Numbered from the stretch's first letter, positions 1 through 15,586 are shown. The stretch: DNA of 64,000 bases from a bacterium (GCA_016934955.1 JAFGRY010000031.1:70805-134804); one strand, 5' to 3'. Notes: generated by a model from the sequence alone, not told the origin. Program-made: numbers and translations.

Positions 1-303
1 CGAAATATGATCGAACGGGCGGTTCTCGTGTCACACGGCAGTGTCATCACCCTGCAGGACGCCGGGCTCGCATACCGTGACGGAACAGAGAGCAAGGGAC
101 CGGACGGCGGTCCGCCGCTTCTCCCCCCTCTCACACAATCGGGTGTGGATTTCTCCGCCCTCGAAGCCATGGTCGAGACATACTATTTCGATGCCGCGCT
201 TCGCCTCAGCGGCGGCAATGAAAGCGGTGCCGCGCGGCTGCTGAACCTGAACCACCATACATTCCGGTACCGGCGCAAAGCACATCCTCCATCCAGCGGC
301 TGA
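1..303 (+). CDS. C-terminal fragment of a sigma-54-dependent transcriptional activator (Fis-type HTH); 5' end lies outside the window
   Basis: The frame is open from base 1. The C-terminal 'GGNESGAARLLNLNHHTFRYRRK' fits the Fis-type helix-turn-helix that terminates NtrC-family enhancer-binding proteins. Stop at 301-303. Confidence 0.6.
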   Translation, partial: RNMIERAVLVSHGSVITLQDAGLAYRDGTESKGPDGGPPLLPPLTQSGVDFSALEAMVETYYFDAALRLSGGNESGAARLLNLNHHTFRYRRKAHPPSSG

Positions 304-319
304 TCCGCACCCCGGCGTT

Positions 320-337
320 ATTCGCAAAATTGCGAAT
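320..337. promoter_or_regulatory. Inverted repeat ATTCGCAA-aa-TTGCGAAT, candidate upstream activator site
   Basis: Perfect 8-nt arms separated by 2 nt, read directly from the sequence. It lies about 110-130 nt upstream of the sigma-54-like -24/-12 element, the usual distance for EBP binding sites. Confidence 0.3.
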
Positions 338-447
338 CCGCATTTGAAATTATGCTAATCAATCACCCGGGCGGACACCTCCCGGCCACTCTTCAAACCC
401 ACCCCAAAATCAATATAAACAAGATATTGAAATAATTGCATCTTTTC

Positions 448-463
448 TGGCACACTCTTCGCT
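448..463 (+). promoter_or_regulatory. Sigma-54 (-24/-12) type promoter candidate
   Basis: TGGCAC-actct-TCGCT has one mismatch to the consensus TGGCAC-N5-TTGCW. It sits 49 nt upstream of the receiver-gene ATG at 512 and just downstream of an EBP gene. Confidence 0.5.
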
Positions 464-511
464 TTGTTCCCGCCTGAACGACAGTGCGATCTAGGGCCGG
501 AGTGCGGACAG

Positions 512-946
512 ATGACGATCTACCAGACATTGCAGTCACTGCAGACGCTGCTCATCGATGACGACGAATGGATACGAAATGCGATGAGCATCGTCTTTGA
601 GAATGAGGGGTGTCCCTTTACTGCTGTTGAAACCGCTGAAGAGGCACTGGTATGCCTGAGACGGACCGCATATGACATTATTATCTGTGATTATCGCCTT
701 CCGGGTATGGACGGTCTGCAATTTTTTCAGCGCATCGGCGCCTCCTGCCCCGGCACAGTAAAGGTCCTGATCACCGCTTATGGCAGTGCGGAACTCTATG
801 AGACCGCCCTGACGGCAGGTATTCATGAAATTATCGAGAAACCGTTCAGCACCACCATCATCGAGGAAGCGCTGCAGCGGCTGCTCTCCCGCTCCGGACC
901 CGCACCTCACCCTATTAACGAAAAAGGAGACATTGCCGGAACATGA
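512..946 (+). CDS. Stand-alone response regulator receiver (CheY-like) protein
   Basis: Receiver motifs are present: 'LLIDDDE', 'IIICDYRLPGMDG', 'VLITAYG', 'EKPF'. I prefer the ATG at 512 (GGAG about 10 nt upstream) over the TTG at 464, which would lie upstream of the predicted sigma-54 transcription start. Confidence 0.85.
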   Translation: MTIYQTLQSLQTLLIDDDEWIRNAMSIVFENEGCPFTAVETAEEALVCLRRTAYDIIICDYRLPGMDGLQFFQRIGASCPGTVKVLITAYGSAELYETALTAGIHEIIEKPFSTTIIEEALQRLLSRSGPAPHPINEKGDIAGT

Positions 947-1007
947 TACTCATACAGACACCGTTTTCAACCACCACCTGTCACCGTTAATTCTGGAGGG
1001 ATATACA

Positions 1008-2294
1008 ATGAATCAAAAGGCTTACAACCCGTTCGACACGGCAAAGGCGCAGTTTGACAAGGTCGCCGAAATGCTGGAACTCGACAACGGGACCCGCGCG
1101 CTCCTGCGCAATACAATGAAAGAATACCATTTCAATATTCCGGTCCGCATGGATGACGGAACCGTCACGGTATTCCGCGGTTTCCGCGTGGTGCACAATG
1201 ACGCCCGGGGTCCGGCAAAAGGCGGTATTCGTTTTCACCCCCAGGAAACAATCGACACGGTTCGCGCCCTTTCGATGTGGATGACCTGGAAATGTGCGGT
1301 GGTCGACATTCCTCTGGGCGGTGCCAAAGGAGGGGTCATCTGTGATCCCCACCATCTCAGCAGCCGTGAGCAGGAGCAGATCTGCCGCGGCTGGATGCGC
1401 CAGCTTTCCCGGGATGTCGGTCCGCTGCAGGATGTACCGGCACCGGACGTCATGACAAATTCGCAGCACATGCTCTGGATGCTCGATGAATATGAAACAC
1501 TTCGCAATGGACGCTACCCGGGGGTTATCACCGGCAAACCGGTGGGCATGGGCGGATCACTGGGCAGAACCGAGGCCACGGGATACGGCGTCATGTACAC
1601 GGTGAGGGAGGCCCTGAAAGAGATGAATATCCGGCCCGAAGATACCACCGCCTCATTCCAGGGCTTCGGCAACGTCTCACAGTACGCCATTCGCCTCTAT
1701 CAGCAGATGGGCGGAACGGCCGTCGCGGCTTCCTGCTGGGACCAGAACGACCAACGGTCCTACACGTTCCGCAAATCCGGCGGCATCGACATGGAAGAGC
1801 TCATGCCGATCACCGACAAATTCGGTGCCATTGACCGGAAGAAGGCGGAAAAACTCGGGTATGAGATTCTCGACGGGGGTGAATGGATCACCCAGGATGT
1901 CGACATTCTGGTTCCGGCGGCGCTTGAAAATGAAATCAACGCCGAGACGGTGACCAGTATAAAGGACAGTGTAAAAATAATCGCCGAGGGTGCGAACGGT
2001 CCCACAACGATCGAAGCCGACAAGGTGCTGCACGAACGGGGCATCTTTGTCATTCCCGATTTTCTGGCGAACGCCGGAGGCGTGACCTGCAGTTATTTCG
2101 AGCAGGTGCAGTGCAACATGAATTACTACTGGGAAAAGGACGAAGTGCTGGGCAAACTGGACACGAAAATGACCGCGGCATTCATCGCCGTCAGCGAACT
2201 TGCCAAGCAGAAGAATCTCTATATGCGTGATGCCGCCTATGTGATTGCCATTGACAGAGTGGCTCAGGCATGTAAAAACCGTGGCTGGGCGTAA
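1008..2294 (+). CDS. gdhA: Glutamate dehydrogenase (Glu/Leu/Phe/Val dehydrogenase family)
   Basis: 'GPAKGGIRFHP', 'KCAVVDIPLGGAKGG' and 'GFGNVSQY' are catalytic-Lys and Rossmann motifs typical of hexameric GDH. ATG at 1008 is preceded by GGAGGG (995-1000). The 825 start would overlap the receiver gene. Confidence 0.95.
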   Translation: MNQKAYNPFDTAKAQFDKVAEMLELDNGTRALLRNTMKEYHFNIPVRMDDGTVTVFRGFRVVHNDARGPAKGGIRFHPQETIDTVRALSMWMTWKCAVVDIPLGGAKGGVICDPHHLSSREQEQICRGWMRQLSRDVGPLQDVPAPDVMTNSQHMLWMLDEYETLRNGRYPGVITGKPVGMGGSLGRTEATGYGVMYTVREALKEMNIRPEDTTASFQGFGNVSQYAIRLYQQMGGTAVAASCWDQNDQRSYTFRKSGGIDMEELMPITDKFGAIDRKKAEKLGYEILDGGEWITQDVDILVPAALENEINAETVTSIKDSVKIIAEGANGPTTIEADKVLHERGIFVIPDFLANAGGVTCSYFEQVQCNMNYYWEKDEVLGKLDTKMTAAFIAVSELAKQKNLYMRDAAYVIAIDRVAQACKNRGWA

Positions 2295-2329
2295 CACATC
2301 AACAGACACAGCTGCCTGTTACAACCAAC

Positions 2330-2363
2330 GTGCGGAAGGCTGCGCGGACACAGCCTTCCGCAC
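2330..2363 (+). other. Perfect 13-bp stem / 8-nt loop hairpin in the gdh-to-paralog-A spacer
   Basis: GTGCGGAAGGCTG (2330-2342), cgcggaca, CAGCCTTCCGCAC (2351-2363). No T-tract follows. Confidence 0.6.
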
Positions 2364-2410
2364 AGCCACCTCAGGATAACAGAGCCGAATCGGCGAGAAA
2401 GGTGTACATA

Positions 2411-4144
2411 ATGGGAGCACATGCTGGTATTCCCCCGTTTATCCGCAAAGAATTTACCGGGCAGGAAGCGGTTACCATGATCGGCAGCGGCGACATCGGA
2501 GGAAAGGCATCGGGGCTGCTGTCACTCGCTGCCGCCGTTGCCGGCAGTGCCGTCCCGGCTCAGTTTGCGGGAGCGGTAATCGATATACCCCGATTTACCG
2601 TCATCGCCACCGATTTCTTTGATCAATTCATGGCGGAAAACACCCTCTCCCCGTTCACCCGTGACGATCTGCCCGATGAACGGATCGCCCACCATTTTCA
2701 GCTGGCAGACCTGCCGGCTAACCTTGCCGGTGATCTCTGGGCGCTGACGCTGAACACGCATGTACCGCTGGCGGTCCGGTCATCGAGCCTTCTTGAGGAC
2801 AGCCTGAAACAACCGTTTGCCGGTATCTATGCGACGAAAATGATCCCCAACAATCAGCCCGATGCCGAAACGAGATTCGCCCGTTTGACGGAAGCGATCA
2901 AATTTGTATATGCCTCGACCTTTTTCAAAAACGCCCGTAACTACCGGCGGGCAACAGGGAGCGGCGTCAGGGATGAAAAAATGGCCGTGATCATTCAGGA
3001 AGTGGCCGGATTACCCCGGCACATGCGGTTTTATCCCGATATTTCCGGAGTTATCCGGACATACAATCCATACCCGTTCGGCAGTGCCGACCCGGAAAGC
3101 GGGATTGTCACCCTCGCCCTCGGCCTGGGCAAGACCATCGTCGACGGAGGCGTATCCTGGTCATTTTCTCCTGACTATCCGGCAGCCCCTCCCCCCTGCG
3201 GTTCGACAACCGAACTGCTCAAACAGACGCAAACATCTTTCTGGGCCGTGAACATGGCAAAATCCCCCGGAGCCGATCCTCTCAGGGAAACTGAATTCCT
3301 TCTCCATCTGGGATTGCGGGACGCGGAATATGACAATGTGCTGCCGCTCCTGGCGTCAACCTACGATCCGGCATCCGACACCGTCTATATCGGGACCGGC
3401 AGAGCCGGCCCGCGCATCCTCAATTTCGGACCGCTGCTGCAGCTCAACGACCTGCCGTTCACCGGTATCATCTCCGCCGTCTCGCACACCTGTCGAACCC
3501 TCGCCGGCGGCCATGTGGAAATCGAGTTCGCGGCCACTATCAACAAGCAGGAATCCCGGCCGCTCAGATTCAGCCTGCTGCAGATGCGAAAGACGGCGAT
3601 TCCCGCCGATTCGGTCAATTATGAGATCTTCGACACAGCTGGAGCGGCGCTGATAGTCTCTGAGCGGATACTGGGCAACGGCGTGAGAGATAACATTCGG
3701 GACATCGTGTTCGTTCGGCCGGACACGTTCGATTTCAGCCGTTCCCGGGAAGCGGCCAGGGAGATCGCCCTGCTGAACGATCGCCTGGTCAATGAAAACC
3801 GGCCCTATATTCTGATCGGCTTCGGCCGCTGGGGCAGCTCTGATCCCTGGCTGGGAATTCCGGTGAACTGGAGCCAGATATCGGGTGCATCGGTAATCGT
3901 GGAATGCGACCACCCGGAGCGGTCCATCGATTTCAGTCAGGGGTCACACTTTTTTCATAATGTTTCCAATCTAAATATTTTGTATTTTTCAGTGCGGCCC
4001 GGTATATCCGGACGCATAGACTGGGACTGGCTGATGCACCAGCTGCCCTGCCACTCGTCTCCGCTGGTACAGCATATTCGTCTGGGAACACCGCTGCGGA
4101 CCGCCGCATCATTCAGGCAGAGAAAGGGAGTCGTTGTCGTATGA
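2411..4144 (+). CDS. PEP/pyruvate-binding (PPDK_N ATP-grasp) domain protein, paralog A; no swivel-His domain seen
   Basis: Motifs 'GGKASGLL', 'VRSSSLLEDS..FAGIYATKMIPNN', 'EKMAVIIQEV', 'EIEFAA...LLQMRK', then a C-terminal 'GFGRWGSSDPWLGIPVNW...SQGSHFFHN'. ATG at 2411 has an AGAAAGG upstream. The alternative GTG at 2330 sits inside the hairpin. Confidence 0.8.
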   Translation: MGAHAGIPPFIRKEFTGQEAVTMIGSGDIGGKASGLLSLAAAVAGSAVPAQFAGAVIDIPRFTVIATDFFDQFMAENTLSPFTRDDLPDERIAHHFQLADLPANLAGDLWALTLNTHVPLAVRSSSLLEDSLKQPFAGIYATKMIPNNQPDAETRFARLTEAIKFVYASTFFKNARNYRRATGSGVRDEKMAVIIQEVAGLPRHMRFYPDISGVIRTYNPYPFGSADPESGIVTLALGLGKTIVDGGVSWSFSPDYPAAPPPCGSTTELLKQTQTSFWAVNMAKSPGADPLRETEFLLHLGLRDAEYDNVLPLLASTYDPASDTVYIGTGRAGPRILNFGPLLQLNDLPFTGIISAVSHTCRTLAGGHVEIEFAATINKQESRPLRFSLLQMRKTAIPADSVNYEIFDTAGAALIVSERILGNGVRDNIRDIVFVRPDTFDFSRSREAAREIALLNDRLVNENRPYILIGFGRWGSSDPWLGIPVNWSQISGASVIVECDHPERSIDFSQGSHFFHNVSNLNILYFSVRPGISGRIDWDWLMHQLPCHSSPLVQHIRLGTPLRTAASFRQRKGVVVV

Positions 4145-7100
4145 GTATCAAACAATCGGAAATGGATGATCTGCTCGACAGCCTGCAGGAACGGGCCAAG
4201 GAGCTTAACTGCTTTTACCAGCTGGAAGAAGTGCTCATCCGCCATGACCTGGAACTGCCCGAACTGTTCCGTCATATCATTGCCATCATACCTCCCGGCT
4301 GGCAGCATCCGAATATCTGTCAGGCCCGCATCATCTATGAGGACGCCGCCTATGAACCGGCCGGTTTCAAAACGCCGGTGGCGGTGCTCAGCGCCGACAT
4401 CACCATTCAGGAAGAAGTGAAAGGCAGGGTCGAGGTTTCCTATACCGAATCGGTTCCCGCCGGCAAAGACGGCTTTTTTCTCAAGGAGGAGAAACGGCTG
4501 ATCTCCACCATAGCCGACCGGATCGCCGGGACCATTCTCTACCGGCAGCTAAGCGGCGGAACCGGTATCGCCGCTGAGAAACAGAAGGAGCACCCGCTTC
4601 GGGATGATACCGAATGGGCCGCCATCATGGACATGCTGCTGAAATCGGACAAGAATCTCTTTATCCATATCTGCAGAAAAATGCTCCACTATCTGTACTG
4701 GAACGGTATTGAAGAGGCTGACACGCTGCTCAAACAGTTCGAGGTCAAGACAACAAAGGACGAACTGGAGGACTGCAACAGACCTTCGAGAAAAAGGACC
4801 ATGCTCCATCTTATCGATCTGAGCAAGGAGGTACTGAAAGTAGCCCAGGAGTCCTTTGACAGTGACCGCATTCTGAGAAATATTCAGAAATGGATCCAGG
4901 AGGACAAATCACGCTTCCTCATTCGGGCGATCGATGACCCGAACGCATCGATCTCTGAAATTATCGATGCGATTTCACGCTATCACACTATTGTGCAGGA
5001 AGGCTTCGAAATAGCACCGGCCATGGAGAAGGGACTGAGAGTCTCCCTTATCCGCCGTTTTTTCTCCGACCAGCTCGAATTCATCAATATTGCCAAACAG
5101 TACATCGACATTCATGACTACTATTACATCATCAAGGATCTGATCTTCAGCCCCAGAAGCCACGGGAGTCTCGGCGGGAAAAGCGCGGGGCTCTTTCTCG
5201 CCTCGCAGATCGTCAAAAAACACGCATCCGCGCATCCGGTCCTGCGGGACATCAGAACACCGAAAACATGGTACATCACATCAGACACCATGATCAACTT
5301 CCTCCACTACAACAACCTGGAACAGGTTATTGAACAGAAATACAAGGATATGGATGAAATTATCATCGAGTATCACAACATCATCCAGATATTCAAGAAC
5401 TCGCCCTTTCCACCGGAAATCCTTCGCCGGCTCTCCGTGCTCGTCGATGATATCGGCGAGATCCCCATTATCGTTCGCAGCTCGAGCCTGCTGGAGGATC
5501 GTCTCGGTGCCGCATTTTCGGGTAAATACAAAAGCCTCTTCCTTCCGAATCAGGGCAGCCGGGAGCAGCGTCTTGACGCCCTGACGGATGCGATTGCGGA
5601 GATCTACGCGTCCACATTCGGGCCGGATCCCATCGAATACCGCAAAGAGAAGGGGCTCATCGATTTTTTCGAAGAAATGGGCGTGATGATCCAGGAAGTT
5701 GTGGGAAAACAGGTCGGTGACTATTTCTTCCCCGCCTTCGCCGGCGTGGCCTTCAGCAACAATGATTTCCGCTGGTCGCCCCGCATAAAAAGAGAGGACG
5801 GACTTCTGCGCATGGTTCCCGGGCTGGGAACGCGGGCGGTGGACCGCCTGTCCGACGACTATCCCGTTCTCGTCTCGCCGGGCTGTCCCGAACTGAAAGT
5901 CTCGATCACACCCGATGAAGTGATCCGGTACTCGCCCAAATGCATCGATGTCATCAATCTGAAAACGCATACATTTGAGACGGTCGAAGTGCCGCAGCTG
6001 CTGAGGGAGCAGGGAGACAGCTATCCGCTGATCAGTAAAATCATTTCCGCGGTAAAAGACAACCACGTCACCGGTTCACTCTCTTCGCTCAATATTGACT
6101 TCAGCAGTGACGATCTGGTCGTGACATTCGACGGCATCATCACCAAAACACCCCTGGTCAAGCAGATATTCACGCTCCTGCAGCTGCTGAAACGGGAGTA
6201 CAGAACACCGGTTGATATCGAATTCGCCCATGACGGCGACCATCTCTATCTTCTCCAGTGCCGGCCCCAGTCACATTCGGGTGATCTCTCCCCCACGCCG
6301 ATACCCAGAGACATCCCCGCTGACAAAATGCTCTTCAGCGCCCAACGATACGTTGCGAACGGTACGGTGACGAACGTCACTCACATCGTCTATGTCGATC
6401 CGGAAGCGTACAGCCGTGCTGCAAACGAGGATGAGCTGAAGAGAGTGGGCCGTGCCGTCAGCCGGCTGAACCAGCTCCTTCCAAAACGGCAGTTCATCCT
6501 CATGGGACCGGGACGCTGGGGCAGCAGAGGTGACATCAAGCTGGGGGTGAGCGTCACCTATTCCGATATCAGCAATACGGCGGCCTTGATCGAAATCGCA
6601 AAAAAGACCGGCAATTTCACACCCGATCTTTCGTTCGGAACTCACTTTTTTCAGGATCTGGTCGAATCGTCGATACGCTACCTTCCGCTCTACCCGGATG
6701 ATGAACAGATCGTATTCAACGAAGCGTTCCTCCTCAAAAGCCGGAATCTTCTCTCGGAACTGATTCCCGAGTTCACTGATCTGGAGCAGACGATCCGGGT
6801 GATCGATGTGCCCGGCCAGACCGATGGCCGCGTCCTGAACATACTGATGAACGCCGACCTTGACGAAGCGGTGGCGCTATTCGCTGAACCCGGCAGGATA
6901 TACGCCCGGACACATGAAAAGATGACCAGCATCACCGACATCAGCGCCCCGGACGAATTCTGGAAATGGCGGTACCACATGGCGGAAACGATCGCCCGTC
7001 ATCTCGATGTTGAGCGGTTCGGGGTCCAGGGGTGTTATCTGTTCGGCAGCACGAAAAACGCCACGGCCGGCCCGGCCAGCGATATCGATCTGCTCATCCA

Positions 7101-7329
7101 CTTTCGGGGAACACCGCAGCAGGAACACGATCTTGTCAACTGGCTGGAAGGGTGGAGCCTGACTCTGGCCGAAATGAACTATCTGAAGACGGGATATCGA
7201 ACGGACGGCCTCCTGGATGTTCACATCATTACCGATGATGACATCAGGAACAAGACGAGCTACGCGGTAAAAATCGGCGCGGTGACCGACGCCGCGAAGG
7301 CGCTGCCGCTTACCCGGGCGGAAGCATGA
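4141..7329 (+). CDS. Multidomain PPDK_N protein, paralog B: N-terminal sensor-like region + PPDK_N ATP-grasp + shared C-module + C-terminal Pol-beta-type nucleotidyltransferase domain
   Basis: 'KELNCFYQLEEVL...GFFLKEEKRLISTIADRI' at the N-terminus; 'GGKSAGLFL', 'VRSSSLLEDRLGAAFSGKYKSLFLPN', 'VDIEFAHDGDHLYLLQCRPQ'; 'GPGRWGSRGD...SFGTHFFQDL'; C-terminal 'YLFGSTKNATAGPASDIDLLIHF' (NTase G-S...D-x-D). ATGA overlap with paralog A (4141-4144). Confidence 0.8.
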   Translation: MSIKQSEMDDLLDSLQERAKELNCFYQLEEVLIRHDLELPELFRHIIAIIPPGWQHPNICQARIIYEDAAYEPAGFKTPVAVLSADITIQEEVKGRVEVSYTESVPAGKDGFFLKEEKRLISTIADRIAGTILYRQLSGGTGIAAEKQKEHPLRDDTEWAAIMDMLLKSDKNLFIHICRKMLHYLYWNGIEEADTLLKQFEVKTTKDELEDCNRPSRKRTMLHLIDLSKEVLKVAQESFDSDRILRNIQKWIQEDKSRFLIRAIDDPNASISEIIDAISRYHTIVQEGFEIAPAMEKGLRVSLIRRFFSDQLEFINIAKQYIDIHDYYYIIKDLIFSPRSHGSLGGKSAGLFLASQIVKKHASAHPVLRDIRTPKTWYITSDTMINFLHYNNLEQVIEQKYKDMDEIIIEYHNIIQIFKNSPFPPEILRRLSVLVDDIGEIPIIVRSSSLLEDRLGAAFSGKYKSLFLPNQGSREQRLDALTDAIAEIYASTFGPDPIEYRKEKGLIDFFEEMGVMIQEVVGKQVGDYFFPAFAGVAFSNNDFRWSPRIKREDGLLRMVPGLGTRAVDRLSDDYPVLVSPGCPELKVSITPDEVIRYSPKCIDVINLKTHTFETVEVPQLLREQGDSYPLISKIISAVKDNHVTGSLSSLNIDFSSDDLVVTFDGIITKTPLVKQIFTLLQLLKREYRTPVDIEFAHDGDHLYLLQCRPQSHSGDLSPTPIPRDIPADKMLFSAQRYVANGTVTNVTHIVYVDPEAYSRAANEDELKRVGRAVSRLNQLLPKRQFILMGPGRWGSRGDIKLGVSVTYSDISNTAALIEIAKKTGNFTPDLSFGTHFFQDLVESSIRYLPLYPDDEQIVFNEAFLLKSRNLLSELIPEFTDLEQTIRVIDVPGQTDGRVLNILMNADLDEAVALFAEPGRIYARTHEKMTSITDISAPDEFWKWRYHMAETIARHLDVERFGVQGCYLFGSTKNATAGPASDIDLLIHFRGTPQQEHDLVNWLEGWSLTLAEMNYLKTGYRTDGLLDVHIITDDDIRNKTSYAVKIGAVTDAAKALPLTRAEA

Positions 7330-8188
7330 CGCGCGCCGCTTTCTCCGGTTCGCGGGGATCGAAACGGACGAGGGCAAGGTCAGGCCCCTCGTGAGCGGCC
7401 GAGAAGAGACAGGTGCCGTTTATCCGGTCCTGCCAGCTGCCCGTTATTCGCGCCGATTCATGGACATGCCCGTGCATGGTCACCAGGGGATGGCGGTTCT
7501 CGATAAACCGCTTTACGGCGATGCTTCCGACATGCACGTCCAGCGGTACGTAATCGACCATTTTCCCGTCAAGGGCGGCCCTGTCCAGTTTTGTCTGGTA
7601 GGGCGGCGCATGAAAAAGGAAAAGCGAGCGTGACAGATCCCTCCCGGCCGCGAGATGCTCAAGATCCTCGCTGATCGTCGTATATTCAAGCCGGGACACC
7701 GGCACCGGAACGGTCAGCGATCCTTCAAAGGGTGCCGTACACCCCGGATCGGTATACCGGGAAACATCGTACCGCTCCCAATCCTTCAGGCGAAAGGGGG
7801 TCGGCGGCACATTGGCGTAACCGTAAATGTCGAATCCGCGCCAGGAAACCCGCCGGTTGTGAACATAGGTCCAGAGTCCGGATGTGGCGACGTCCAGCAC
7901 CGAGGCCTCTTCAATCCGCGCGTCATCATTACCCAGAATTAAAAACACATCAGGATACTCATCCTCCAGGTCACGCCGCAGCCGGCTGAAGCCCTCCGCG
8001 AGGCAGGTATGAATGAAATCACGGTGCGACGCCTTCAGGGTGTCGGCGAAAAAGGCGGTCCCCCCCGGCAGCAGATCACCTCCCAGAAAGAGTGCAGCCG
8101 GCCGTTCCTTGCGGACAGCGGCGAACAGGGTCCTGTACAGGGCCATGTTTCCATGCAGATCGCTGACGAAAAAAACCTCGTTTTTCAT
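7310..8188 (-). CDS. Metallophosphoesterase (calcineurin-like)
   Basis: Ordered motifs 'VSDLHGN', 'GGDLL', 'GNDD', 'FHAPP', 'GHVHE'. The 3' end overlaps the 3' end of paralog B by 20 nt (convergent). Confidence 0.8.
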   Translation of the reverse strand: MKNEVFFVSDLHGNMALYRTLFAAVRKERPAALFLGGDLLPGGTAFFADTLKASHRDFIHTCLAEGFSRLRRDLEDEYPDVFLILGNDDARIEEASVLDVATSGLWTYVHNRRVSWRGFDIYGYANVPPTPFRLKDWERYDVSRYTDPGCTAPFEGSLTVPVPVSRLEYTTISEDLEHLAAGRDLSRSLFLFHAPPYQTKLDRAALDGKMVDYVPLDVHVGSIAVKRFIENRHPLVTMHGHVHESARITGSWQDRINGTCLFSAAHEGPDLALVRFDPREPEKAARVMLPPG

Positions 8189-8381
8189 TACCGGGCCGCG
8201 CCTTTCATTAATAAAAACAGATAAACTCCCCGTTCCGCTGCTGATAAATTAGGTGCTTTTCGAGTGAAAGTCAACTCAATTGTGGATGCCGCTGGCATAA
8301 ACAGACTCTGAAAAACCTTGTTTACCAGCCTTTATTTGCGTATTTTTCCAGAGCATTCCCGCCGACGATCAAGGAACGACA

Positions 8382-11354
8382 ATGAAAAAAATCGACGCCT
8401 TCTCTTCAGAAAACATCGAATTGTACGACGCTCACTTCCAGCAGTTTCAGAACCTGATGAGATTCCGCATTCGGGACGTGCTCATCGTCTCCAGTCTCTA
8501 TGATTTCCACGTCTTCGAAGAGGATGGACGGATTTACGAACTGCTGCGGAGCGAATACCAGGGCCTGAACCTGAGCCATACACCCGAGCTCACCCATATC
8601 AGCAGCGGCCACGAAGCGCTGCGGCTCATCTGCGACAACACCCAGTACGACCTGATCATCACGACGCTGCATATCGGTGACATGACACCGGGCGAGTTCG
8701 TGCGCATGCTGAGAAAATCGAAAATCGACACGCCCATTATCATGCTCGCATTTGACAACCGCGAGCTCGCCGACATGATCGCCCACGGCGAAGACAAGTA
8801 CTATGACCAGGTATTCATCTGGCAGGGCAATTACCGTCTCATTCTCGCCATCATCAAATTCCTGGAGGATCACATCAATGTCGCCCACGACACCGAGGTG
8901 CTGGGCGTGCAGTCGATCATTCTCGTTGAAGACAACATCAGGCACTATTCAACGCTTCTCCCCCTCATCTATATCGAGATCATCAACCAGACCCACCGGC
9001 TGATCAGGGAGGGCGTGAACCAGTCCCATAAAAATCTCCGCCAGCGGGCGAGGCCGAAAATCCTTCTCTGCACCACCTATGAAGAGGCGGTGGCGGTCTA
9101 TACCCGGTATCACGCAACCGTGCTCGGCATTATTTCGGACGTGGAATTCAGCCGCAACGGCGTTCCGGACAGGGAAGCGGGATTTCTGCTCGCCGGAGAA
9201 GTGAGGGAAAAACACCGGGATATCCCGATCCTTTTTCAGTCGTCCGTCAGCGAGAACAGAACCCGGGCGAGGGAGATGGGGTGCAGTTTTACCGGTAAAG
9301 ACTCGGACGACCTCGCGAAGACACTGCGGGAATTCATGCGCACCAGTCTCGGGTTCGGTGACTTCGTTTTCCGCACTCCCGATGGGAAAACGATCGACAC
9401 CGCCCAGGATCTCCATTCCATGGAGAAGAAACTAAAACACGTCCCTTTGGAAAGCATCAAATTCCATGCGGAACGAAACCATTTTTCGAACTGGCTCAAG
9501 GCCAGGACCGAATTCTGGCTGGCCAACAAGCTGCGGCCCCGCCGGACGTCCGATTTCGACAGTGTTCAGGATCTCAGGGACTATCTCATCGAATCGCTGA
9601 AAAATTACCGGCGGATACAGCAGCGCGGGCGCATCACTGACTTCAACCCGGAACTCTTCGACCCGTCCTACAGCCTTTCCCGCTACGGAGGCGGCTCCCT
9701 CGGCGGCAAGGCCCGCGGTCTCGGGTTCATCAACACCCTGATCCACAATTACGGCATCACGAAAAAATATCCGGGGGTGCGCATACACGTACCGGCGGCG
9801 CTGATCATCGCCACCGATGTCTTCGACGAATTCATGGATATGAACGGACTGCGCGCATTCGTGCTGCAGCATGAAGACAACAGCGAAATCGACGAGGCCT
9901 TCCGCAGCGCCGACCGCTATCCGCCGGGCCTCATCACCGCCCTGAAGGACTTTCTGAAGATTGTCAGCCGGCCCCTCGCCGTGCGTTCATCGGGCCTGCT
10001 GGAAGATTCGCATGTCCACCCCTTTGCCGGCGTGTATGAGACATTCATGCTCCCCAACAACCACCCCGACCCCGATGTCCGCCTCTCCCAGCTGCTGGAA
10101 CGCATAAAGGGCGTGTACGCCTCCGCCTTCTATCGCGTTTCCAAGGATTACATGAAAGCGACCACGTTCCGCCTGGAAGAGGAAAAAATGGCGGTTATCG
10201 TGCAGCTGCTCACGGGATCGGAAAGAAACGGAAAATTCTACCCCATTGTCTCGGGCACGGCGAATTCCTATAACTTCTATCCCGTCTACCCCCAGGAAAG
10301 CAAGGACGGTATTGCCTCGATCGCCCTCGGCCTGGGAACAACCGTGGTCGACGGCGGCCGCACGGTGAGATTCTCCCCTGCCTATCCGCACCACCTGCTT
10401 CAGTTCAGCAGCCCCAAAATGGCGCTGGAAAACAGCCAGCATGATTTTGTCGCGCTCTCCATGACGAACGATACAACCGATGAACTCCACCTTACCCGCT
10501 CCTACCCCGTTGCCGAAGCGGAAAAAGACGATGTGCTTCATTTTGTCGCCTCAACCTACTCACCGGAAAACGATGCCGTCTATGACGGCATATCGCGCTC
10601 GGGTCCCAGGATCATCAGTTTCGCGAATATCCTGAAGAATGATATCTTTCCCCTGGCAGAGATCATCAGGGAACTTCTGAGTATCGGCACCCGCAGCATG
10701 GGCACGCCGGTGGACATCGAATTCGCCGCGGACCTCGGCGGTCCGCGGGACAAACCGCGGCCGTTCAGTCTGCTTCAGATACGGCCCATGGTGCTTTCCC
10801 GGGAATCGGAGAAAATCCATATCACTCCTGCGGAAAAAAAACGTATCATCTGCCGAAGCGAACAGGTACTGGGGAACGGCGTAATCAACACGCTCGAGGA
10901 CATCGTGCTGGTTGACCGGGAAACATACGAGCGGTCCCGAAGCATCGAGGTGGCCGGGGAGGTGAGCCGGTTCAACGCCGCGCTGCTGGAACAGAAACGG
11001 CACTACCTGCTTATCGGTGTCGGCCGCTGGGGCTCCATGGATCCCTGGCTGGGCATCCCCGTCCGCTGGAGCATGATCTCCGGAGCCAGGGTTATTGTGG
11101 AGGCGGGATTCAGGGATTTTGAAGTGGAGCCGTCACAGGGAACCCATTTCCTGGAGAATCTCAATTCCTTCTCGATCGGCTATTTCACGCTCGACAACCG
11201 GGACGAACACGCGTTTCTGGACTGGGAATGGCTGAACGCCCTCCCCGCCATCGAACGAAAAACATATACACGCCACATCAGGCTCGACAGACCGCTTTCC
11301 ATCAGAATGAGCGGCAGACAGCGCCAGGGTGTCATTCTCAGACCGAAGGAATGA
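8382..11354 (+). CDS. PPDK_N protein, paralog C, with two N-terminal receiver-like domains (first degenerate)
   Basis: The first receiver-like region 'VLIVSSLYD...DLIITTLHIGDM' lacks the acidic pocket and acceptor Asp. The second, 'IILVEDN...LGIISDVEF...FQSS...TGK', looks competent. Then 'GGKARGLGF', 'VRSSGLLEDSHVHPFAGVYETFMLPNN', 'VDIEFAAD...LLQIRP', 'GVGRWGSMDPWLGIPVRW...SQGTHFLEN'. AAGGAA lies upstream of the ATG. Confidence 0.8.
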   Translation: MKKIDAFSSENIELYDAHFQQFQNLMRFRIRDVLIVSSLYDFHVFEEDGRIYELLRSEYQGLNLSHTPELTHISSGHEALRLICDNTQYDLIITTLHIGDMTPGEFVRMLRKSKIDTPIIMLAFDNRELADMIAHGEDKYYDQVFIWQGNYRLILAIIKFLEDHINVAHDTEVLGVQSIILVEDNIRHYSTLLPLIYIEIINQTHRLIREGVNQSHKNLRQRARPKILLCTTYEEAVAVYTRYHATVLGIISDVEFSRNGVPDREAGFLLAGEVREKHRDIPILFQSSVSENRTRAREMGCSFTGKDSDDLAKTLREFMRTSLGFGDFVFRTPDGKTIDTAQDLHSMEKKLKHVPLESIKFHAERNHFSNWLKARTEFWLANKLRPRRTSDFDSVQDLRDYLIESLKNYRRIQQRGRITDFNPELFDPSYSLSRYGGGSLGGKARGLGFINTLIHNYGITKKYPGVRIHVPAALIIATDVFDEFMDMNGLRAFVLQHEDNSEIDEAFRSADRYPPGLITALKDFLKIVSRPLAVRSSGLLEDSHVHPFAGVYETFMLPNNHPDPDVRLSQLLERIKGVYASAFYRVSKDYMKATTFRLEEEKMAVIVQLLTGSERNGKFYPIVSGTANSYNFYPVYPQESKDGIASIALGLGTTVVDGGRTVRFSPAYPHHLLQFSSPKMALENSQHDFVALSMTNDTTDELHLTRSYPVAEAEKDDVLHFVASTYSPENDAVYDGISRSGPRIISFANILKNDIFPLAEIIRELLSIGTRSMGTPVDIEFAADLGGPRDKPRPFSLLQIRPMVLSRESEKIHITPAEKKRIICRSEQVLGNGVINTLEDIVLVDRETYERSRSIEVAGEVSRFNAALLEQKRHYLLIGVGRWGSMDPWLGIPVRWSMISGARVIVEAGFRDFEVEPSQGTHFLENLNSFSIGYFTLDNRDEHAFLDWEWLNALPAIERKTYTRHIRLDRPLSIRMSGRQRQGVILRPKE

Positions 11355-12523
11355 TCCGGTCCCGCGCTGATTCCGGTCACCCGGCCATGACACTGACGGA
11401 AACGAAGGCGAGAACCGTTCTGCGGACCTACAGGACCCTGGACTCCTGGTTCATCAGCCGCTACGCCATGAATCTCTATCGAGGCTGCGCCCATAACTGC
11501 GCCTACTGCGACGGGCGGTATGAAGGGTACTATCTTCCCGGAATCTTCGGAGAGGACGTTACCGTCAAAATCAATGCCGCCGATGTTCTGAGAAGAGAAC
11601 TGGACCCGAGCCGCAGACGAACCCCGCTCACTCCCTGCTATCTCATGCTCGGAGGCGGCGTGGGCGACAGCTATCAGCCGGCCGAACGGACCCGCGGACT
11701 CACCCGGCAGGTCCTCGAGATCATGCTCGAGTACGGGCTTCCGGTGCATCTGCTCACAAAATCGGTCCTGGCCGCCCGGGACATGGATCTGCTGAGCCGC
11801 ATCAGCCGCTCGGCCGGGGTGCTGGTCACGGTCAGTTTCTCAACCCTGGACTCGGGCCTCAGCGCACTTTTCGAGCCGGGAGCATCCCCGCCCGAGGAGC
11901 GGATCGACCTTCTTGACCGGCTGAAAACAGCCTCCATTCCCTGCGGCATGGCGCTCATGCCGGTTATCCCCTTTCTCACCGATACGCCGGCCCACATCGA
12001 GACGGCGGTCCGGACCGCCGCGCACATGCGTCTCGATTACGTGCTCTTCTCCGGGATGACCCTGAAACCGGGCCGTCAGATGGAGCACTTTCTGAACCTG
12101 CTCGGCCGCCACTTTCCCGGGAAGATTGAAGAATATTACGCGATCTATCACGGCACCCGCAGGGGGGAAGCGTGCAGCGCGTACAGTGATCATATTCACT
12201 CGCTGTTCCGGGACGCCGTGACCCGCTACCGCATGCCCCCGCGCATACCCGCGCATCTGTTCAGCAGAGTGCTCACCCTCACCGACCTTGCCGCGGTCAT
12301 GCTCGATCAGATACATTACCTCTGCAGGCTCCACAACCGGCCCTCCTCCTTCGGCGCGGCGGCAAGGGCCGTCGCCGGTCTCCGGGAACCGCTGCCGACC
12401 CTGGCCGGACGGCTGCGAAGCATTAACGGTATCGGTCCCGTCACGGAAAAAGTGCTGTGTGAGATTCTGGAAAGCCGCACCAGCAGCTACTATCGCCGCC
12501 TGCTTTCCGCCCGTTTTTCCTGA
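11351..12523 (+). CDS. Radical SAM protein, SplB/COG1533-like, with C-terminal helix-hairpin-helix-like motif
   Basis: 'YRGCAHNCAYCDGRY' is a CX3CX2C cluster in the context typical of SplB-like radical SAM enzymes. C-terminal 'INGIGPVTEKVL'. ATG at 11351 overlaps the paralog C stop (ATGA); the alternative ATG is 11387. Confidence 0.75.
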   Translation: MIRSRADSGHPAMTLTETKARTVLRTYRTLDSWFISRYAMNLYRGCAHNCAYCDGRYEGYYLPGIFGEDVTVKINAADVLRRELDPSRRRTPLTPCYLMLGGGVGDSYQPAERTRGLTRQVLEIMLEYGLPVHLLTKSVLAARDMDLLSRISRSAGVLVTVSFSTLDSGLSALFEPGASPPEERIDLLDRLKTASIPCGMALMPVIPFLTDTPAHIETAVRTAAHMRLDYVLFSGMTLKPGRQMEHFLNLLGRHFPGKIEEYYAIYHGTRRGEACSAYSDHIHSLFRDAVTRYRMPPRIPAHLFSRVLTLTDLAAVMLDQIHYLCRLHNRPSSFGAAARAVAGLREPLPTLAGRLRSINGIGPVTEKVLCEILESRTSSYYRRLLSARFS

Positions 12524-12612: not shown

Positions 12613-13344
12613 ATGAAATCGAGCTATTTCATTTCCGACATTCACCTGGGGACCGACACGGAGTATGCGTCACGGACCCGCCTGCGCCTGCTGCTGGATT
12701 TCTTTGCCGCGATCGAGAAGGATGCGGAGCATCTGTTCATTGTCGGTGATCTGTTCGATTTCTGGTTCGAGTATAAAAGCGTCATGCCCAAAGGACATTT
12801 TGATCTGCTCTACGCCCTGAAAAAAATGCGGGATGCGGGTACCGCCATTACCCTTCTTCGGGGAAACCACGATTTCTGGATCGCCGGTTTTTTTGAGGAT
12901 GAGCTGGGCATTCCTGTACACGACGATTTTCTCGATATCAGGCTGGGCGGCAAACGGTTCTACATCTCCCACGGCGATGGACTCGCCAAAGACGACAAAG
13001 GATATCGTTTTCTGAAAAAAATACTGCGCAATCCATTCAACATCCGGCTGTTCTCCCTGCTGCACCCTGATATTGGACACGCCCTTGCCACGTTTTCCTC
13101 CCGGCTGAGCCGTGATTACAGCCCCATACTGGACGACAGGGAGGACTATATGCAGTTCGCGAGGGAGATGTTCGGGCGGGACTATGACTGCGTGGTTCTG
13201 GGGCATACCCACGCCCCTGTGCTGCTCAGAGAGGCACATCATGTATACCTGAACACCGGAGACTGGATGAGCAGGTTCACCTACGGTAAATTCACCGACG
13301 GAAGACTTACCCTGGAGCACTGGCCGCTCCCGGAACAGCGGTAA
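12613..13344 (+). CDS. lpxH: UDP-2,3-diacylglucosamine hydrolase
   Basis: 'YFISDIHLG', 'GDLFDFW', 'GNHDFW', 'HGD', 'GHTH'; about 240 aa, typical LpxH layout. Confidence 0.8.
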   Translation: MKSSYFISDIHLGTDTEYASRTRLRLLLDFFAAIEKDAEHLFIVGDLFDFWFEYKSVMPKGHFDLLYALKKMRDAGTAITLLRGNHDFWIAGFFEDELGIPVHDDFLDIRLGGKRFYISHGDGLAKDDKGYRFLKKILRNPFNIRLFSLLHPDIGHALATFSSRLSRDYSPILDDREDYMQFAREMFGRDYDCVVLGHTHAPVLLREAHHVYLNTGDWMSRFTYGKFTDGRLTLEHWPLPEQR

Positions 13345-13375
13345 CGGTTTTCCCCGCATTGAAACAGGAACAGAT

Positions 13376-15586
13376 ATGAAACGGAATCGCAGAGAATACA
13401 CGATCAGAAAGGAACGAGAGATTTCCGGACCGGGGCTGCTGACACGCCGTCCCTGGCTGAAATATCCGCTTTTCATCATCGGGGGCATGACGCTGCTGGG
13501 CATCGTCTCACTGGTAATCCTCAGCCGGGATCTCCCTTCCCTCAGCGAACTTGAGCGCGCGGCCGACCCCAAGATGGTGACCCGTATCTATTCCGCGGAC
13601 GGACAGATACTCGATGAAATCAGCATCGAGAAACGGGTGCTCATTCCCATTGACCGTATACCGAAATACGTGCTGGACGCCACCATCGCGCTGGAGGACC
13701 GGAAGTTTTACCGCCACTGGGGACTCGATCTCCGCAGCATATTCAAATACACTGTTCTCAACATCGTCAACATGGACATCATCGGAGGGGGCAGTACTCT
13801 GACACAGCAGCTGGCGAAGAAGGTGTACCACAGTTCCCGCCAGACCCTGATCAGAAAAATCAGGGAAGGGCTCACCTCCCTGCAGATCGAACGAACCTAC
13901 TCCAAGACTGAAATTCTCGAAATGTACCTGAACAGGATGGAATTCGGCCGGGGCGCCTTCGGCATCCAGTCGGCGGCCAAAGCCTGGTTCGGGAAAAACA
14001 TCGAAGAGGTTACCATCGATCAGGCGGCCATGCTGGTGGGCATGATGCAGCTTCCCTACGGCTACTACTCGCCTGACCGTGACAGTGCGGCCGCGGTGGT
14101 GAGACGGAACGTGGTCATGGGGACGATGGTCGACATGGGCTATCTGGATCATGCGGCCTTCGACTCTCTCAAGACCCTGCCGCTGGAAGTCATCCCGAAA
14201 AACAGCGAAGAAAAGAAAATCGCCCCCTTCTTCTGCCAGTATGTAATCGATGAATTGAAAGAACAGTTCGGAGCAGGTCTCTGGACCGACGGATATTCCA
14301 TTTATACCACGCTGGACACCCGGGTACAGGCCTGCGCGGACAGTGCGATCAAAGGGTTCATTCCTGAACTGGAAGCAAAAATTCACGGCGAGATTCTGGA
14401 AAAGCGGTCATTTCTCAAATGGCTTCCAGACACACTGGAAACGGAGAAACAGATACTGGCATTCCTCGCCGATTCGGCCGCGGTCGACTCGCTGCTCACC
14501 AACCGGGCGACCCTTGAAACATCGCTCACCGCCATCGATCCGTCGAACGGCTACATCCTGGCCATGGTCGGCGGCCGGGAATGGGGGGATGGACCGGGCC
14601 AGACAAAATTCAATCACGCAACCCAGGCTGCCAGGCAGCCAGGTTCCTGTTTCAAGCCGCTCGCCTATACCGTATCGGTCGACAACGGATACCCGCCGTC
14701 TTCCCAGTTTCTCAACGTACCGCTGACCCTGGAGCTTCCCAACGGTGATGTCTGGCGGCCCCGCAACTATCAGGAAACAAGCGGCGGGCGCATCACCATG
14801 CGTGAAGGCCTTTACCGCTCACTCAACCTCATCTCCATCCGCATGGTGCAGAAACATCAGACGCAGCGGCAGATCGTGGAATACGCAAAGAACTTCGGCA
14901 TCACCACCCCTATCAGGCCCTATGCCAGTGTTGTCCTGGGTGCGGAAGTGGTGCATCCCATCGAGATGGTGTACGCCTTTGCCACCTTCGCGAACAGGGG
15001 TGTTCGCCAGAAGCCCATTGCCGTGCTGCGGGTCGAGGACAACCATGGAAACGTGGTGCTCGAATCGCACCCGGGCGGGCCGGAGGTCATCAGCCCCCAG
15101 ACCGCCTTCATCATGACCGACATGCTCCGCAGCGTGCTCGACGAACCCCGGGGCACCGGGCATGCGGCCCGCTGGAAATATAATTTCTACCGGCCCGCCG
15201 CCGGTAAAACCGGCACGACAAACGATTTCCGGGATGCCTGGTTCATCGGGTTCACTCCCCAGATCGCCTCGGCTGTCTGGGTCGGATTCGATGACGAACG
15301 GATCAAACTCGGGGAAGGCCAGTCGGGAAGCCAGACCGGACTGCCGGTGTGGGCACCCTTTATGCGCATGGCCCATGACACCCTTGAGCTGCCCCTGGCG
15401 GATTTTATCGAACCGCCGGGAATCGAGCATCACAGGATCTGCAAGGAGACGGGAAAACTCGCCCTCGACACCTGTCCCGACATTCAGGATGAAGTTTTCA
15501 TTGAAGGCACCGCGCCCATCGACACCTGCGATGTCCATGCCAATCCCTGGCAGTCACAGCGGGACACCAGGCGGCGCGTTTTTTAA
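13376..15586 (+). CDS. mrcA: Penicillin-binding protein 1A (bifunctional glycosyltransferase/transpeptidase)
   Basis: GT51 motifs 'ALEDRKFYRHWG' and 'GGSTLTQQLAK'; transpeptidase 'SCFKP' (SxxK), 'SLN', 'KTGTT'; N-terminal TM anchor. Confidence 0.9.
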   Translation: MKRNRREYTIRKEREISGPGLLTRRPWLKYPLFIIGGMTLLGIVSLVILSRDLPSLSELERAADPKMVTRIYSADGQILDEISIEKRVLIPIDRIPKYVLDATIALEDRKFYRHWGLDLRSIFKYTVLNIVNMDIIGGGSTLTQQLAKKVYHSSRQTLIRKIREGLTSLQIERTYSKTEILEMYLNRMEFGRGAFGIQSAAKAWFGKNIEEVTIDQAAMLVGMMQLPYGYYSPDRDSAAAVVRRNVVMGTMVDMGYLDHAAFDSLKTLPLEVIPKNSEEKKIAPFFCQYVIDELKEQFGAGLWTDGYSIYTTLDTRVQACADSAIKGFIPELEAKIHGEILEKRSFLKWLPDTLETEKQILAFLADSAAVDSLLTNRATLETSLTAIDPSNGYILAMVGGREWGDGPGQTKFNHATQAARQPGSCFKPLAYTVSVDNGYPPSSQFLNVPLTLELPNGDVWRPRNYQETSGGRITMREGLYRSLNLISIRMVQKHQTQRQIVEYAKNFGITTPIRPYASVVLGAEVVHPIEMVYAFATFANRGVRQKPIAVLRVEDNHGNVVLESHPGGPEVISPQTAFIMTDMLRSVLDEPRGTGHAARWKYNFYRPAAGKTGTTNDFRDAWFIGFTPQIASAVWVGFDDERIKLGEGQSGSQTGLPVWAPFMRMAHDTLELPLADFIEPPGIEHHRICKETGKLALDTCPDIQDEVFIEGTAPIDTCDVHANPWQSQRDTRRRVF

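Follow-up and report, generated by a model that had tools for sequence, protein, structure and literature searches.

The DNA analysed here is a stretch of 64,000 nucleotides from a bacterium (GCA_016934955.1, JAFGRY010000031.1:70805-134804), hereafter the window, with positions counted from its first letter. Near its start it encodes three paralogous proteins, termed A, B and C, in each of which an ATP-grasp domain of the PPDK_N family is followed by a shared C-terminal module, together with a glutamate dehydrogenase (GDH) of the hexameric type. The family formed by these paralogs is nearly obligately associated with GDH genes. In the window, the GDH gene (1008..2294, plus strand; ELFV_dehydrog_N and ELFV_dehydrog domains, true start at ATG 1008) is followed on the same strand by A (2411..4144; 577 aa, MBN2416423.1), by B (4141..7329; 1062 aa, MBN2416424.1) and, beyond a metallophosphoesterase gene of opposite orientation, by C (8382..11354; 990 aa, MBN2416426.1). 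A contains PPDK_N and the module with no further domain; B consists of an N-terminal domain, PPDK_N (residues 343-716), the module and an NTP_transf_2 domain (residues 958-1000); C carries a pseudo-receiver, a receiver, a linker, the ATP-grasp domain and the module. The three open reading frames are present as a first-pass annotation of this DNA had delimited them, A having no periphery as it had stated, and the ATGA overlaps that it had reported between A and B (at 4141) and between C and a radical SAM gene (at 11351) are both real.

Profile searches bear out the proposal that A, B and C are PPDK_N proteins lacking a swivel domain. Pfam PF01326 is found in A (E 4e-29), B (E 2e-58) and C (E 3.5e-33), while neither the swivel (PF00391) nor the barrel (PF02896) gives a Pfam match in the full proteins at E<=0.01. 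The C-terminal parts of A and B have no Pfam match even at E<=10, save the nucleotidyltransferase of B, and no known acceptor-substrate domain, whether the PF02896 barrel or the rifampin-binding domain, was detected by Pfam in any of the three. The best NCBIfam matches of the paralogs are phosphoenolpyruvate (PEP) synthase models, scoring far under their cutoffs. Across 42 sequences covering the A, B and C types, the ATP-site motifs GGK, VRSS, [DE]IEF and LLQxR are invariant, as are K32, R123, E372, Q391 and R393 (A numbering), which by motif position we take to match the ATP-site residues of PPDK. The ATP-grasp domains of all three paralogs are predicted to be catalytically intact. The AlphaFold2 (AF2) model of full-length A, built with 42 homologues, reaches a pLDDT of 86.7 and a pTM of 0.88, with a dip in pLDDT to 59-69 over residues 391-410 that parts the ATP-grasp domain from the C-terminal domain. 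Foldseek searches with the full model returned ATP-grasp relatives only, including rifampin phosphotransferase (RPH; 5hv3, E 1e-13), HpeI (9goj) and PPDK (E 1e-6), and full-length alignments against multidomain RPH and PPDK have TM scores of at most 0.42 (query-normalised).

The module shared by the three proteins had been recognised in the first-pass annotation, which gave it a length of about 100 residues; the module itself is real, but it forms a discrete domain of about 170 residues. In A it spans residues 408-577 (3632..4141, plus strand, from the AF2 model), whereas alignment of A, B and C places it at 6310..6870 in B, where it is internal since the nucleotidyltransferase comes after it, and at 10830..11351 in C, both again on the plus strand. 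Past the ATP-grasp domain the three paralogs share the invariant pattern GxGRWGS..D..LG..V..S.IS...E...S.G.HF. Modelled alone, the module of A (408-577) is predicted by AF2 with a pLDDT of 94.3 and a pTM of 0.91. That it lies outside known families was also correctly anticipated, as neither Pfam, NCBIfam, PDB sequence profiles nor Foldseek provided a match: there were zero matches in Pfam (E<=10) and NCBIfam (E<=1), nothing under E 0.9 when the module profile was run against PDB sequences, and no Foldseek match at E<0.001 against the PDB and BFVD, the best E value being 0.08 and the best TM score 0.31. By its model, the module is a domain of unrecognised fold which occupies the place of the swivel. 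It had been suspected, from the motifs 'ILIGxG..P' and 'G[ST]H', of being a diverged or permuted swivel, a notion rejected for want of support from Pfam, NCBIfam, PDB profiles or Foldseek; a local similarity to the first part of the RPH swivel, scoring -1.5 bits, is noise.

A profile search with the module against 1.84 billion representative proteins gave 2,251 clusters, defined at 50% identity, at E<=1e-3 and 604 at E<=1e-30. In every full-length architecture examined the module follows directly after PPDK_N, and the B type is the sole type with anything C-terminal of it. Short matches that might have represented a free-standing module are truncated gene calls starting inside the ATP-grasp domain. 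Among 516 unique modules an Arg, a Glu, a Ser and three Gly residues are 100% conserved and a His is 99.8% conserved, and the stretch GPGRWGS...E...SFGTHF is kept invariant in 25 homologues of B. Over the full length of the 42 A-, B- and C-type proteins this His (H513 in A) is the only invariant one. Taken as a residue signature, the module resembles an active site.

These features relate the paralogs to, and set them apart from, the PEP-utilising dikinases PpsA, PPDK, RPH and PigC/RedH. Both groups share a homologous ATP-grasp domain and its ATP-site motifs, and in both a His preceded by Ser or Thr lies on a separate, flexibly linked domain. In contrast to those enzymes, however, A, B and C have no swivel, barrel or other known acceptor domain, their module is unrelated to phosphohistidine domains by sequence and fold searches, their genes sit with GDH and not with pyruvate/PEP or antibiotic genes, and B and C are fused to nucleotidyltransferase and N-terminal domains or to receiver domains. 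In split dikinases (phenylphosphate synthase and the HpeI/AcvA type) PPDK_N works without a swivel on the same polypeptide, but these systems encode a separate swivel subunit, for which the GDH cassettes have no conserved gene in their vicinity. The statement in the first-pass annotation that such proteins cannot act as classical dikinases is too strong: the canonical swivel is indeed absent, but the sole invariant His lies in a G-[ST]-H-F loop of the linked module. This His in a flexibly linked module makes a phospho-His relay conceivable, with the module as a non-homologous carrier, and A, B and C might transfer the beta-phosphate of ATP via phospho-His, yielding AMP and Pi or PPi.

The genomic setting of the family is dominated by GDH. 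The window GDH aligns over residues 7-427 to the Thermococcus enzyme 1euz (E 1.6e-118), scoring 183 bits with PF02812 and 239 bits with PF00208. Homologues of A number at least 8,000 among the scored candidates at E<=1e-5, the best 120 being about 580 aa long. A genome scan with A yielded 80 loci from some 15 phylum-level labels of metagenome-assembled genomes, including Acidobacteriota, Bacteroidota, Ignavibacteriota, Zixibacteria, Gemmatimonadota and Planctomycetota; in all, 168 related loci were compared. GDH lies immediately 5' of A on the same strand in 73 of 75 loci, and B comes after A in 67 of 67. A metallophosphoesterase (MPE) gene comes after B in 45 of 61 loci, in 39 of them convergently, as in the window. 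All-against-all clustering of the open reading frames of the 80 loci revealed no further family that exceeds about 10% of loci. In most loci the cassette GDH is 71-78% identical to that of the window, and A only about 51%. The tie to glutamate and nitrogen metabolism at which the first-pass annotation had guessed is thereby upheld, as the strongest outcome of the analysis, GDH preceding A at the above frequency and C-type genes in 60 of 69 cases.

C-type genes have a GDH neighbourhood of their own. Scored candidates at E<=1e-5 for homologues of C amount to 7,879, and the best 120 of them have lengths near 1,000 aa. Six individual look-ups gave the order GDH-C-GDH three times, GDH-C followed by an alanine dehydrogenase gene once, GDH-C once and an MPE gene divergent from C once (L085). 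A metagenome scan with C added 80 loci, and among the C-type genes with enough flanking sequence GDH is immediately 5' on the same strand in 60/69, 3' in 32/69 and on either side in 46/50. The GDH 5' of C is of a type of about 450 aa, 34% identical to the window GDH, while that 3' of C, where present, is mostly of a type of about 415 aa with 46-48% identity. In about ten loci (L091, L093, L104, L108, L113, L120, L128, L131, L137 and L142) tandem arrays of the form GDH-C-GDH-C-GDH occur, in which each C paralog is preceded by its own GDH paralog of about 450 aa and the array often ends with a GDH of about 415 aa. Full-length C is close to an A/B cassette in only about 7 of the 80 loci, and in L133, L164 and L167 it stands beside an MPE-B-A-GDH cassette in a window-like manner. 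Overall, the family is tied to amino-acid dehydrogenase genes, and it may serve amino-acid dehydrogenases more broadly. The alanine dehydrogenase gene following GDH-C lies at 12244-13371 of L084, and genes for acetyl-CoA hydrolase, malic enzyme and 2-oxoacid:ferredoxin oxidoreductase come after it.

The peripheral domains differ between the paralogs. B ends in a minimal Pol-beta-type nucleotidyltransferase (NTase; 6980..7326, plus strand; PF01909 and PF18765), predicted in the first-pass annotation and recovered by PF01909 at 28.1 bits against a cutoff of 21. Its residues G969, S970, D981 and D983 (GS...DxD) are invariant in the 25 homologues of B, and PDB profiles give weak matches to the minimal NTases 2rff and 1wot. 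The 320-residue N-terminal domain of B is about 40% identical between loci and contains several invariant residues; it belongs to no Pfam or NCBIfam family, and PDB profiles returned no informative match, so that the sensor-like character given to it in the first-pass annotation is putative. Natural A-B fusions of about 1,630-1,650 aa are found in other genomes (P0127, P0128, P0131, P0133, P0138 and P0141); in P0128, residues 21-587 match A with 47% identity and residues 932-1447 match the core of B. The existence of such fusions implies that A and B act together. A further arrangement is seen in L081 (97-5404), where a gene of the C type (1001 aa) runs into the beginning of a B-like gene for 769 aa, which comprises the B-type N-terminal region and core without an NTase.

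For C, two receiver-like domains had been described. The second is a true receiver, but the first is a pseudo-receiver lacking the acceptor Asp: in 120 homologues SS stands in place of DD and Thr in place of the acceptor. Pfam detects a single, weak receiver in C at residues 62-126, that is, in the first region only. In the true receiver E183, D253 and K306 are at least 97% conserved in the 120 homologues, and D184 at least 85%. The true receiver before PPDK_N and the module makes C a response regulator whose output is enzymatic, and not a histidine kinase. The receiver residues (Asp253, E183/D184, K306) preceding an enzymatic output are shared with other response regulators of this kind; C differs in that PPDK_N plus module has, as far as our searches reach, not been described as a response-regulator output, and in that its first receiver-like domain is a pseudo-receiver. 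In the databases MBN2416423.1 is named 'hypothetical', MBN2416424.1 'nucleotidyltransferase domain-containing' and MBN2416426.1 'histidine kinase'. Homologues of C appear as 'CheY-like chemotaxis protein' or 'phosphoenolpyruvate synthase', some having a weak DUF5752 match between receiver and ATP-grasp domain. Labels such as 'histidine kinase', 'phosphoenolpyruvate synthase' or 'hypothetical protein' mislead where this family is concerned.

Two further elements frequently accompany the cassette. The MPE gene (7310..8188, minus strand; Pfam Metallophos) is convergent with B and divergent from C, and its product scores 33.5 bits with PF00149 against a cutoff of 21.5. The metal motifs DxH, GD, GNDD, H and GHxH are present, with D10, H12, G37, D38, G86, N87, D88, H193, H239 and H241 invariant in 19 homologues; neither Pfam nor NCBIfam assigns a subfamily, and the nearest PDB entry, 2yvt, is reached at E 0.007 only. 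The second element is a stable GC-rich hairpin in the spacer between GDH and A (2330..2364, plus strand, from RNA folding), which has a stem of 13 bp and no U-tract. The spacer as a whole (2292-2412) folds at -41 kcal/mol with a z of -4.5, and 47 of 71 GDH-A spacers of other loci can form an uninterrupted stem of 9 bp or more, though the spacer sequences differ. This hairpin may set the expression of GDH relative to A and B or shield the 3' end of the GDH mRNA, and the structured spacer suggests abundant GDH and scarcer A and B.

Further genes of the window, namely the tail of a sigma-54 enhancer-binding protein (EBP) gene, a stand-alone receiver, GDH, the metallophosphoesterase and the radical SAM gene, had all been listed in the first-pass annotation and were all found by domain search. 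The 3' end of the EBP gene lies at 7..303 (plus strand; Pfam HTH_8, a Fis-type helix-turn-helix, E 3e-6) and the CheY-like stand-alone receiver at 513..946 (plus strand; Pfam Response_reg, E 3e-22; likely start ATG 513). About 50 nucleotides 5' of the receiver gene is a sigma-54-type -24/-12 element, TGGCACactctTCGCT (448..463, plus strand), the only match in the window with at most one mismatch to the sigma-54 consensus, the overall motif count being not above chance. The closest relative, L001, has an equivalent GG-N10-GC element, TGGCATaatctCTGCA, at the same position, 3' of a full NtrC-type EBP gene whose product is a complete REC plus Sigma54_activat protein. L001 is also the only one of the 80 loci with a stand-alone receiver. 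Sigma-54 control is plausible for the lineage of the window, as predicted from these elements, and local to that lineage. As a general trait of the cassette it was rejected, with a sigma-54-like motif 5' of GDH in only 3 of 75 other loci and EBP genes near the cassette in 8 of 80. GntR/FCD regulators are found near the cassette in 6 loci and tandem universal stress protein genes also in 6; in L005, L008, L010, L015, L025, L054, L022, L044, L063 and L069 the place just 5' of GDH is taken by a GntR/FCD regulator or by a tandem universal stress protein instead of an NtrC-type EBP. Transcriptional control of the cassette is lineage-specific.

The radical SAM gene (11351..12523, plus strand, by Pfam and NCBIfam) is found in 0 of the 168 related loci, nor does one follow C in L001, so it is probably an unrelated passenger and was discarded as a member of the system. 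Its product is of the Rv2578c/PA0069 (SplB-like) type, well under the cutoffs of those families, and ends in a C-terminal helix-hairpin-helix; the gene is translationally coupled to C through the ATGA overlap. The end of the locus is marked by ordinary envelope genes 3' of it (12613-15586, plus strand), one for a metallophosphoesterase that resembles LpxH but scores under the equivalog cutoff, the next for a class A penicillin-binding protein. Some 45 kb away, at 55213-58313 on the minus strand, the window holds two hybrid histidine kinase genes, of PAS-HisKA-HATPase-REC and REC-HisKA-HATPase architecture, and these are possible partners of the stand-alone receiver, the EBP or C. The idea that sigma-54 element, receiver, paralog trio and radical SAM gene form a conserved unit does not hold, the only conserved parts being GDH-A-B, often with MPE, and GDH-C. 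The assembly in the window is a GDH-A-B cassette with a C paralog and lineage-specific NtrC/sigma-54 control.

With GDH adjacency so nearly constant, the paralogs probably form a control system for GDH. With somewhat less than even confidence, A, B and C are read here as signal-controlled, ATP-dependent covalent modifiers of the adjacent GDH, the target, the reaction and the sense of regulation being inferred throughout. The ATP-grasp domain would cleave ATP in the manner of a dikinase, and a phosphoryl or pyrophosphoryl group would pass to the invariant His in the G-[ST]-H-F loop of the module, which sits on a flexible linker. From the His the group would be handed to a GDH residue, thereby switching GDH activity. 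Input to C would come through its true receiver (Asp253), fed by a histidine kinase, and input to B through its N-terminal domain, with A acting as the partner of B. The NTase of B might add a second mark, AMP, as GlnE does on glutamine synthetase, and MPE could erase the marks. Taken with all these parts, as a widespread post-translational switch of GDH, and perhaps of other amino-acid dehydrogenases, where the phosphoryl carrier is a domain of new fold, inputs reach C by two-component signalling and B through a dedicated sensor domain, the NTase sets an AMP mark and MPE is the eraser, the scheme is possible but rather doubtful.

Several observations favour a protein target. In the tandem arrays each C paralog has its own GDH, which favours a protein over a shared small molecule, and so does the pairing of GDH classes by enzyme type, A and B going with GDHs of 72-78% identity to that of the window and C with one of 34% on its 5' side and mostly 46-48% on its 3' side. 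Receiver and sensor-type input domains suit regulators, and the structured GDH-A spacer fits an abundant enzyme followed by scarce regulators. Functional analogies, without any claim of homology, also exist. In the GlnE/GlnD system a nitrogen enzyme is controlled by a signal-driven NTase of the Pol-beta fold, and B has such an NTase near a plausible eraser; the targets there, however, are glutamine synthetase and PII rather than GDH, GlnE has no core of ATP-grasp plus module, and no relationship is claimed past the NTase superfamily. PpsR/PDRP, encoded beside ppsA/ppdK, is likewise a covalent on/off regulator located by its target and using an unusual phosphoryl transfer, but it consists of DUF299 proteins and not of ATP-grasp enzymes.

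Other points weigh against covalent modification of GDH. The window has three paralogs and only one GDH gene, MPE is missing from 16 of 61 cassettes, and Foldseek searches with the module reveal no resemblance in fold to phosphohistidine domains. So large a number of invariant residues in the module would be at least as fitting for a catalytic site that binds a substrate as for a carrier. The known acceptors of the PPDK_N family are small molecules or glucans, reached via a canonical swivel, and we know of no enzyme of this family that phosphorylates another protein. Gene adjacency does not separate a regulator from a metabolic partner.

A reading in which the paralogs are metabolic partners of GDH, with 2-oxoacids or amino acids as their substrates, is the main rival and is unlikely. 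Dikinase-type use of ATP, releasing AMP and Pi, would here activate a small substrate or product of GDH, the module being the substrate-binding catalytic domain; the carbonyl or enol of 2-oxoglutarate or pyruvate, for example, could be phosphorylated for amination at low ammonium. Such a role would keep the paralogs in line with their characterised relatives, PpsA, PPDK, rifampin phosphotransferase, PigC/RedH and the HpeI-type split dikinases, which act on small molecules or glucans. It would also account for the active-site-like character of the invariant residues of the module, for the operonic order GDH-A-B, which is typical of pathway genes, and for the alanine dehydrogenase of L084, another enzyme of 2-oxoacids and ammonium. 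Receiver and sensor-type inputs and several paralogs per genome are, however, odd for pathway enzymes, and a C paralog for each GDH paralog would be needless if metabolites were shared. The structured GDH-A spacer moreover suggests unequal expression, and the NTase and the phosphoesterase are given no role.

It is improbable that the paralogs act as an activase, assembly factor or stable complex partner, in which ATP hydrolysis would shift the GDH hexamer between inactive and active states and leave no covalent mark. The strength of the linkage (73/75 and 67/67) is compatible with a physical complex, and both the unusual conservation of the cassette GDH, 71-78% across phyla, and the existence of A-B fusions would agree with one, as would the GdhA of Bacteroides that reportedly stays inactive in E. 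coli unless downstream DNA is supplied (see below), but PPDK_N chemistry and an invariant site of His, Arg, Glu and Ser point to group transfer rather than mechanical work, and the NTase and phosphoesterase would stay unexplained. Distinctly less probable still is a set of nucleotide-signal enzymes, with the ATP-grasp and NTase proteins as synthases and MPE as the degrader, co-regulated with GDH in nitrogen or carbon sensing without acting on it. Although input domains are present and the NTase and phosphoesterase resemble synthase/phosphodiesterase pairs, this leaves unexplained why GDH is the single conserved neighbour over about 15 phylum-level labels and why each C paralog has its own GDH, and A and C have no NTase.

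An anti-phage defence or toxin-antitoxin module around the minimal NTase is very improbable: PADLOC does match the NTase of B to PDC-S09 (E 4e-8) and the phosphoesterase to PDC-S10 (E 8e-7), but these matches are confined to some 40 residues of generic domains and are missing from A and C, and the neighbour that stays constant is GDH, a housekeeping enzyme, in a cassette that is syntenic and highly conserved in sequence. That A, B and C are decayed, functionless remnants of PEP synthases which lost swivel and barrel, as the sub-cutoff NCBIfam matches might suggest, is refuted by conservation, with thousands of intact homologues at 50-65% identity across phyla, invariant catalytic residues and an added domain that is itself conserved and folds confidently.

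Searches of the available literature on PF01326, GDH, dikinase and ATP-grasp gave no paper on this family, and the first-pass annotation could name no characterised system of such composition. The A/B/C family thus appears to be undescribed, a new and very widespread branch of the dikinase superfamily. Covalent control of GDH by this family would bear on older work in Bacteroides. In 1996 Baggio and Morrison are reported to have described one or more trans-acting genes downstream of gdhA that are needed for GdhA activity in Bacteroides thetaiotaomicron; reportedly, E. coli produced GdhA in an inactive form unless some 3 kb of DNA from that side was supplied in trans. Yamamoto and colleagues reportedly found, in 1987, a reversible in vivo inactivation of B. 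fragilis GDH. A C-type gene is about 3 kb long, and the reported arrangement resembles that in L082, L083 and L088, where the neighbouring genes are Bacteroidota-like. If the family does switch GDH, both the trans-acting gene of 1996 and the inactivation of 1987 would be accounted for. In a two-dimensional gel proteomics study of B. fragilis (PMC4539542), the NAD(P)H-dependent GDH is present as three spots (9, 10 and 11). The three spots are compatible with charge isoforms and hence with covalent modification, of which they are no more than suggestive.

GDH stands at the junction of carbon and nitrogen metabolism, and its control in bacteria is generally ascribed to transcription, allosteric effects or proteolysis. 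To our knowledge, no GDH counterpart exists to the covalent cascade that acts on glutamine synthetase. Should A, B and C prove to be metabolic partners instead, they would represent an ATP-coupled variant of the GDH reaction. If they do modify GDH, they would add a new regulatory layer to the nitrogen metabolism of dominant soil, sediment and gut phyla, and would constitute a new use of dikinase chemistry.

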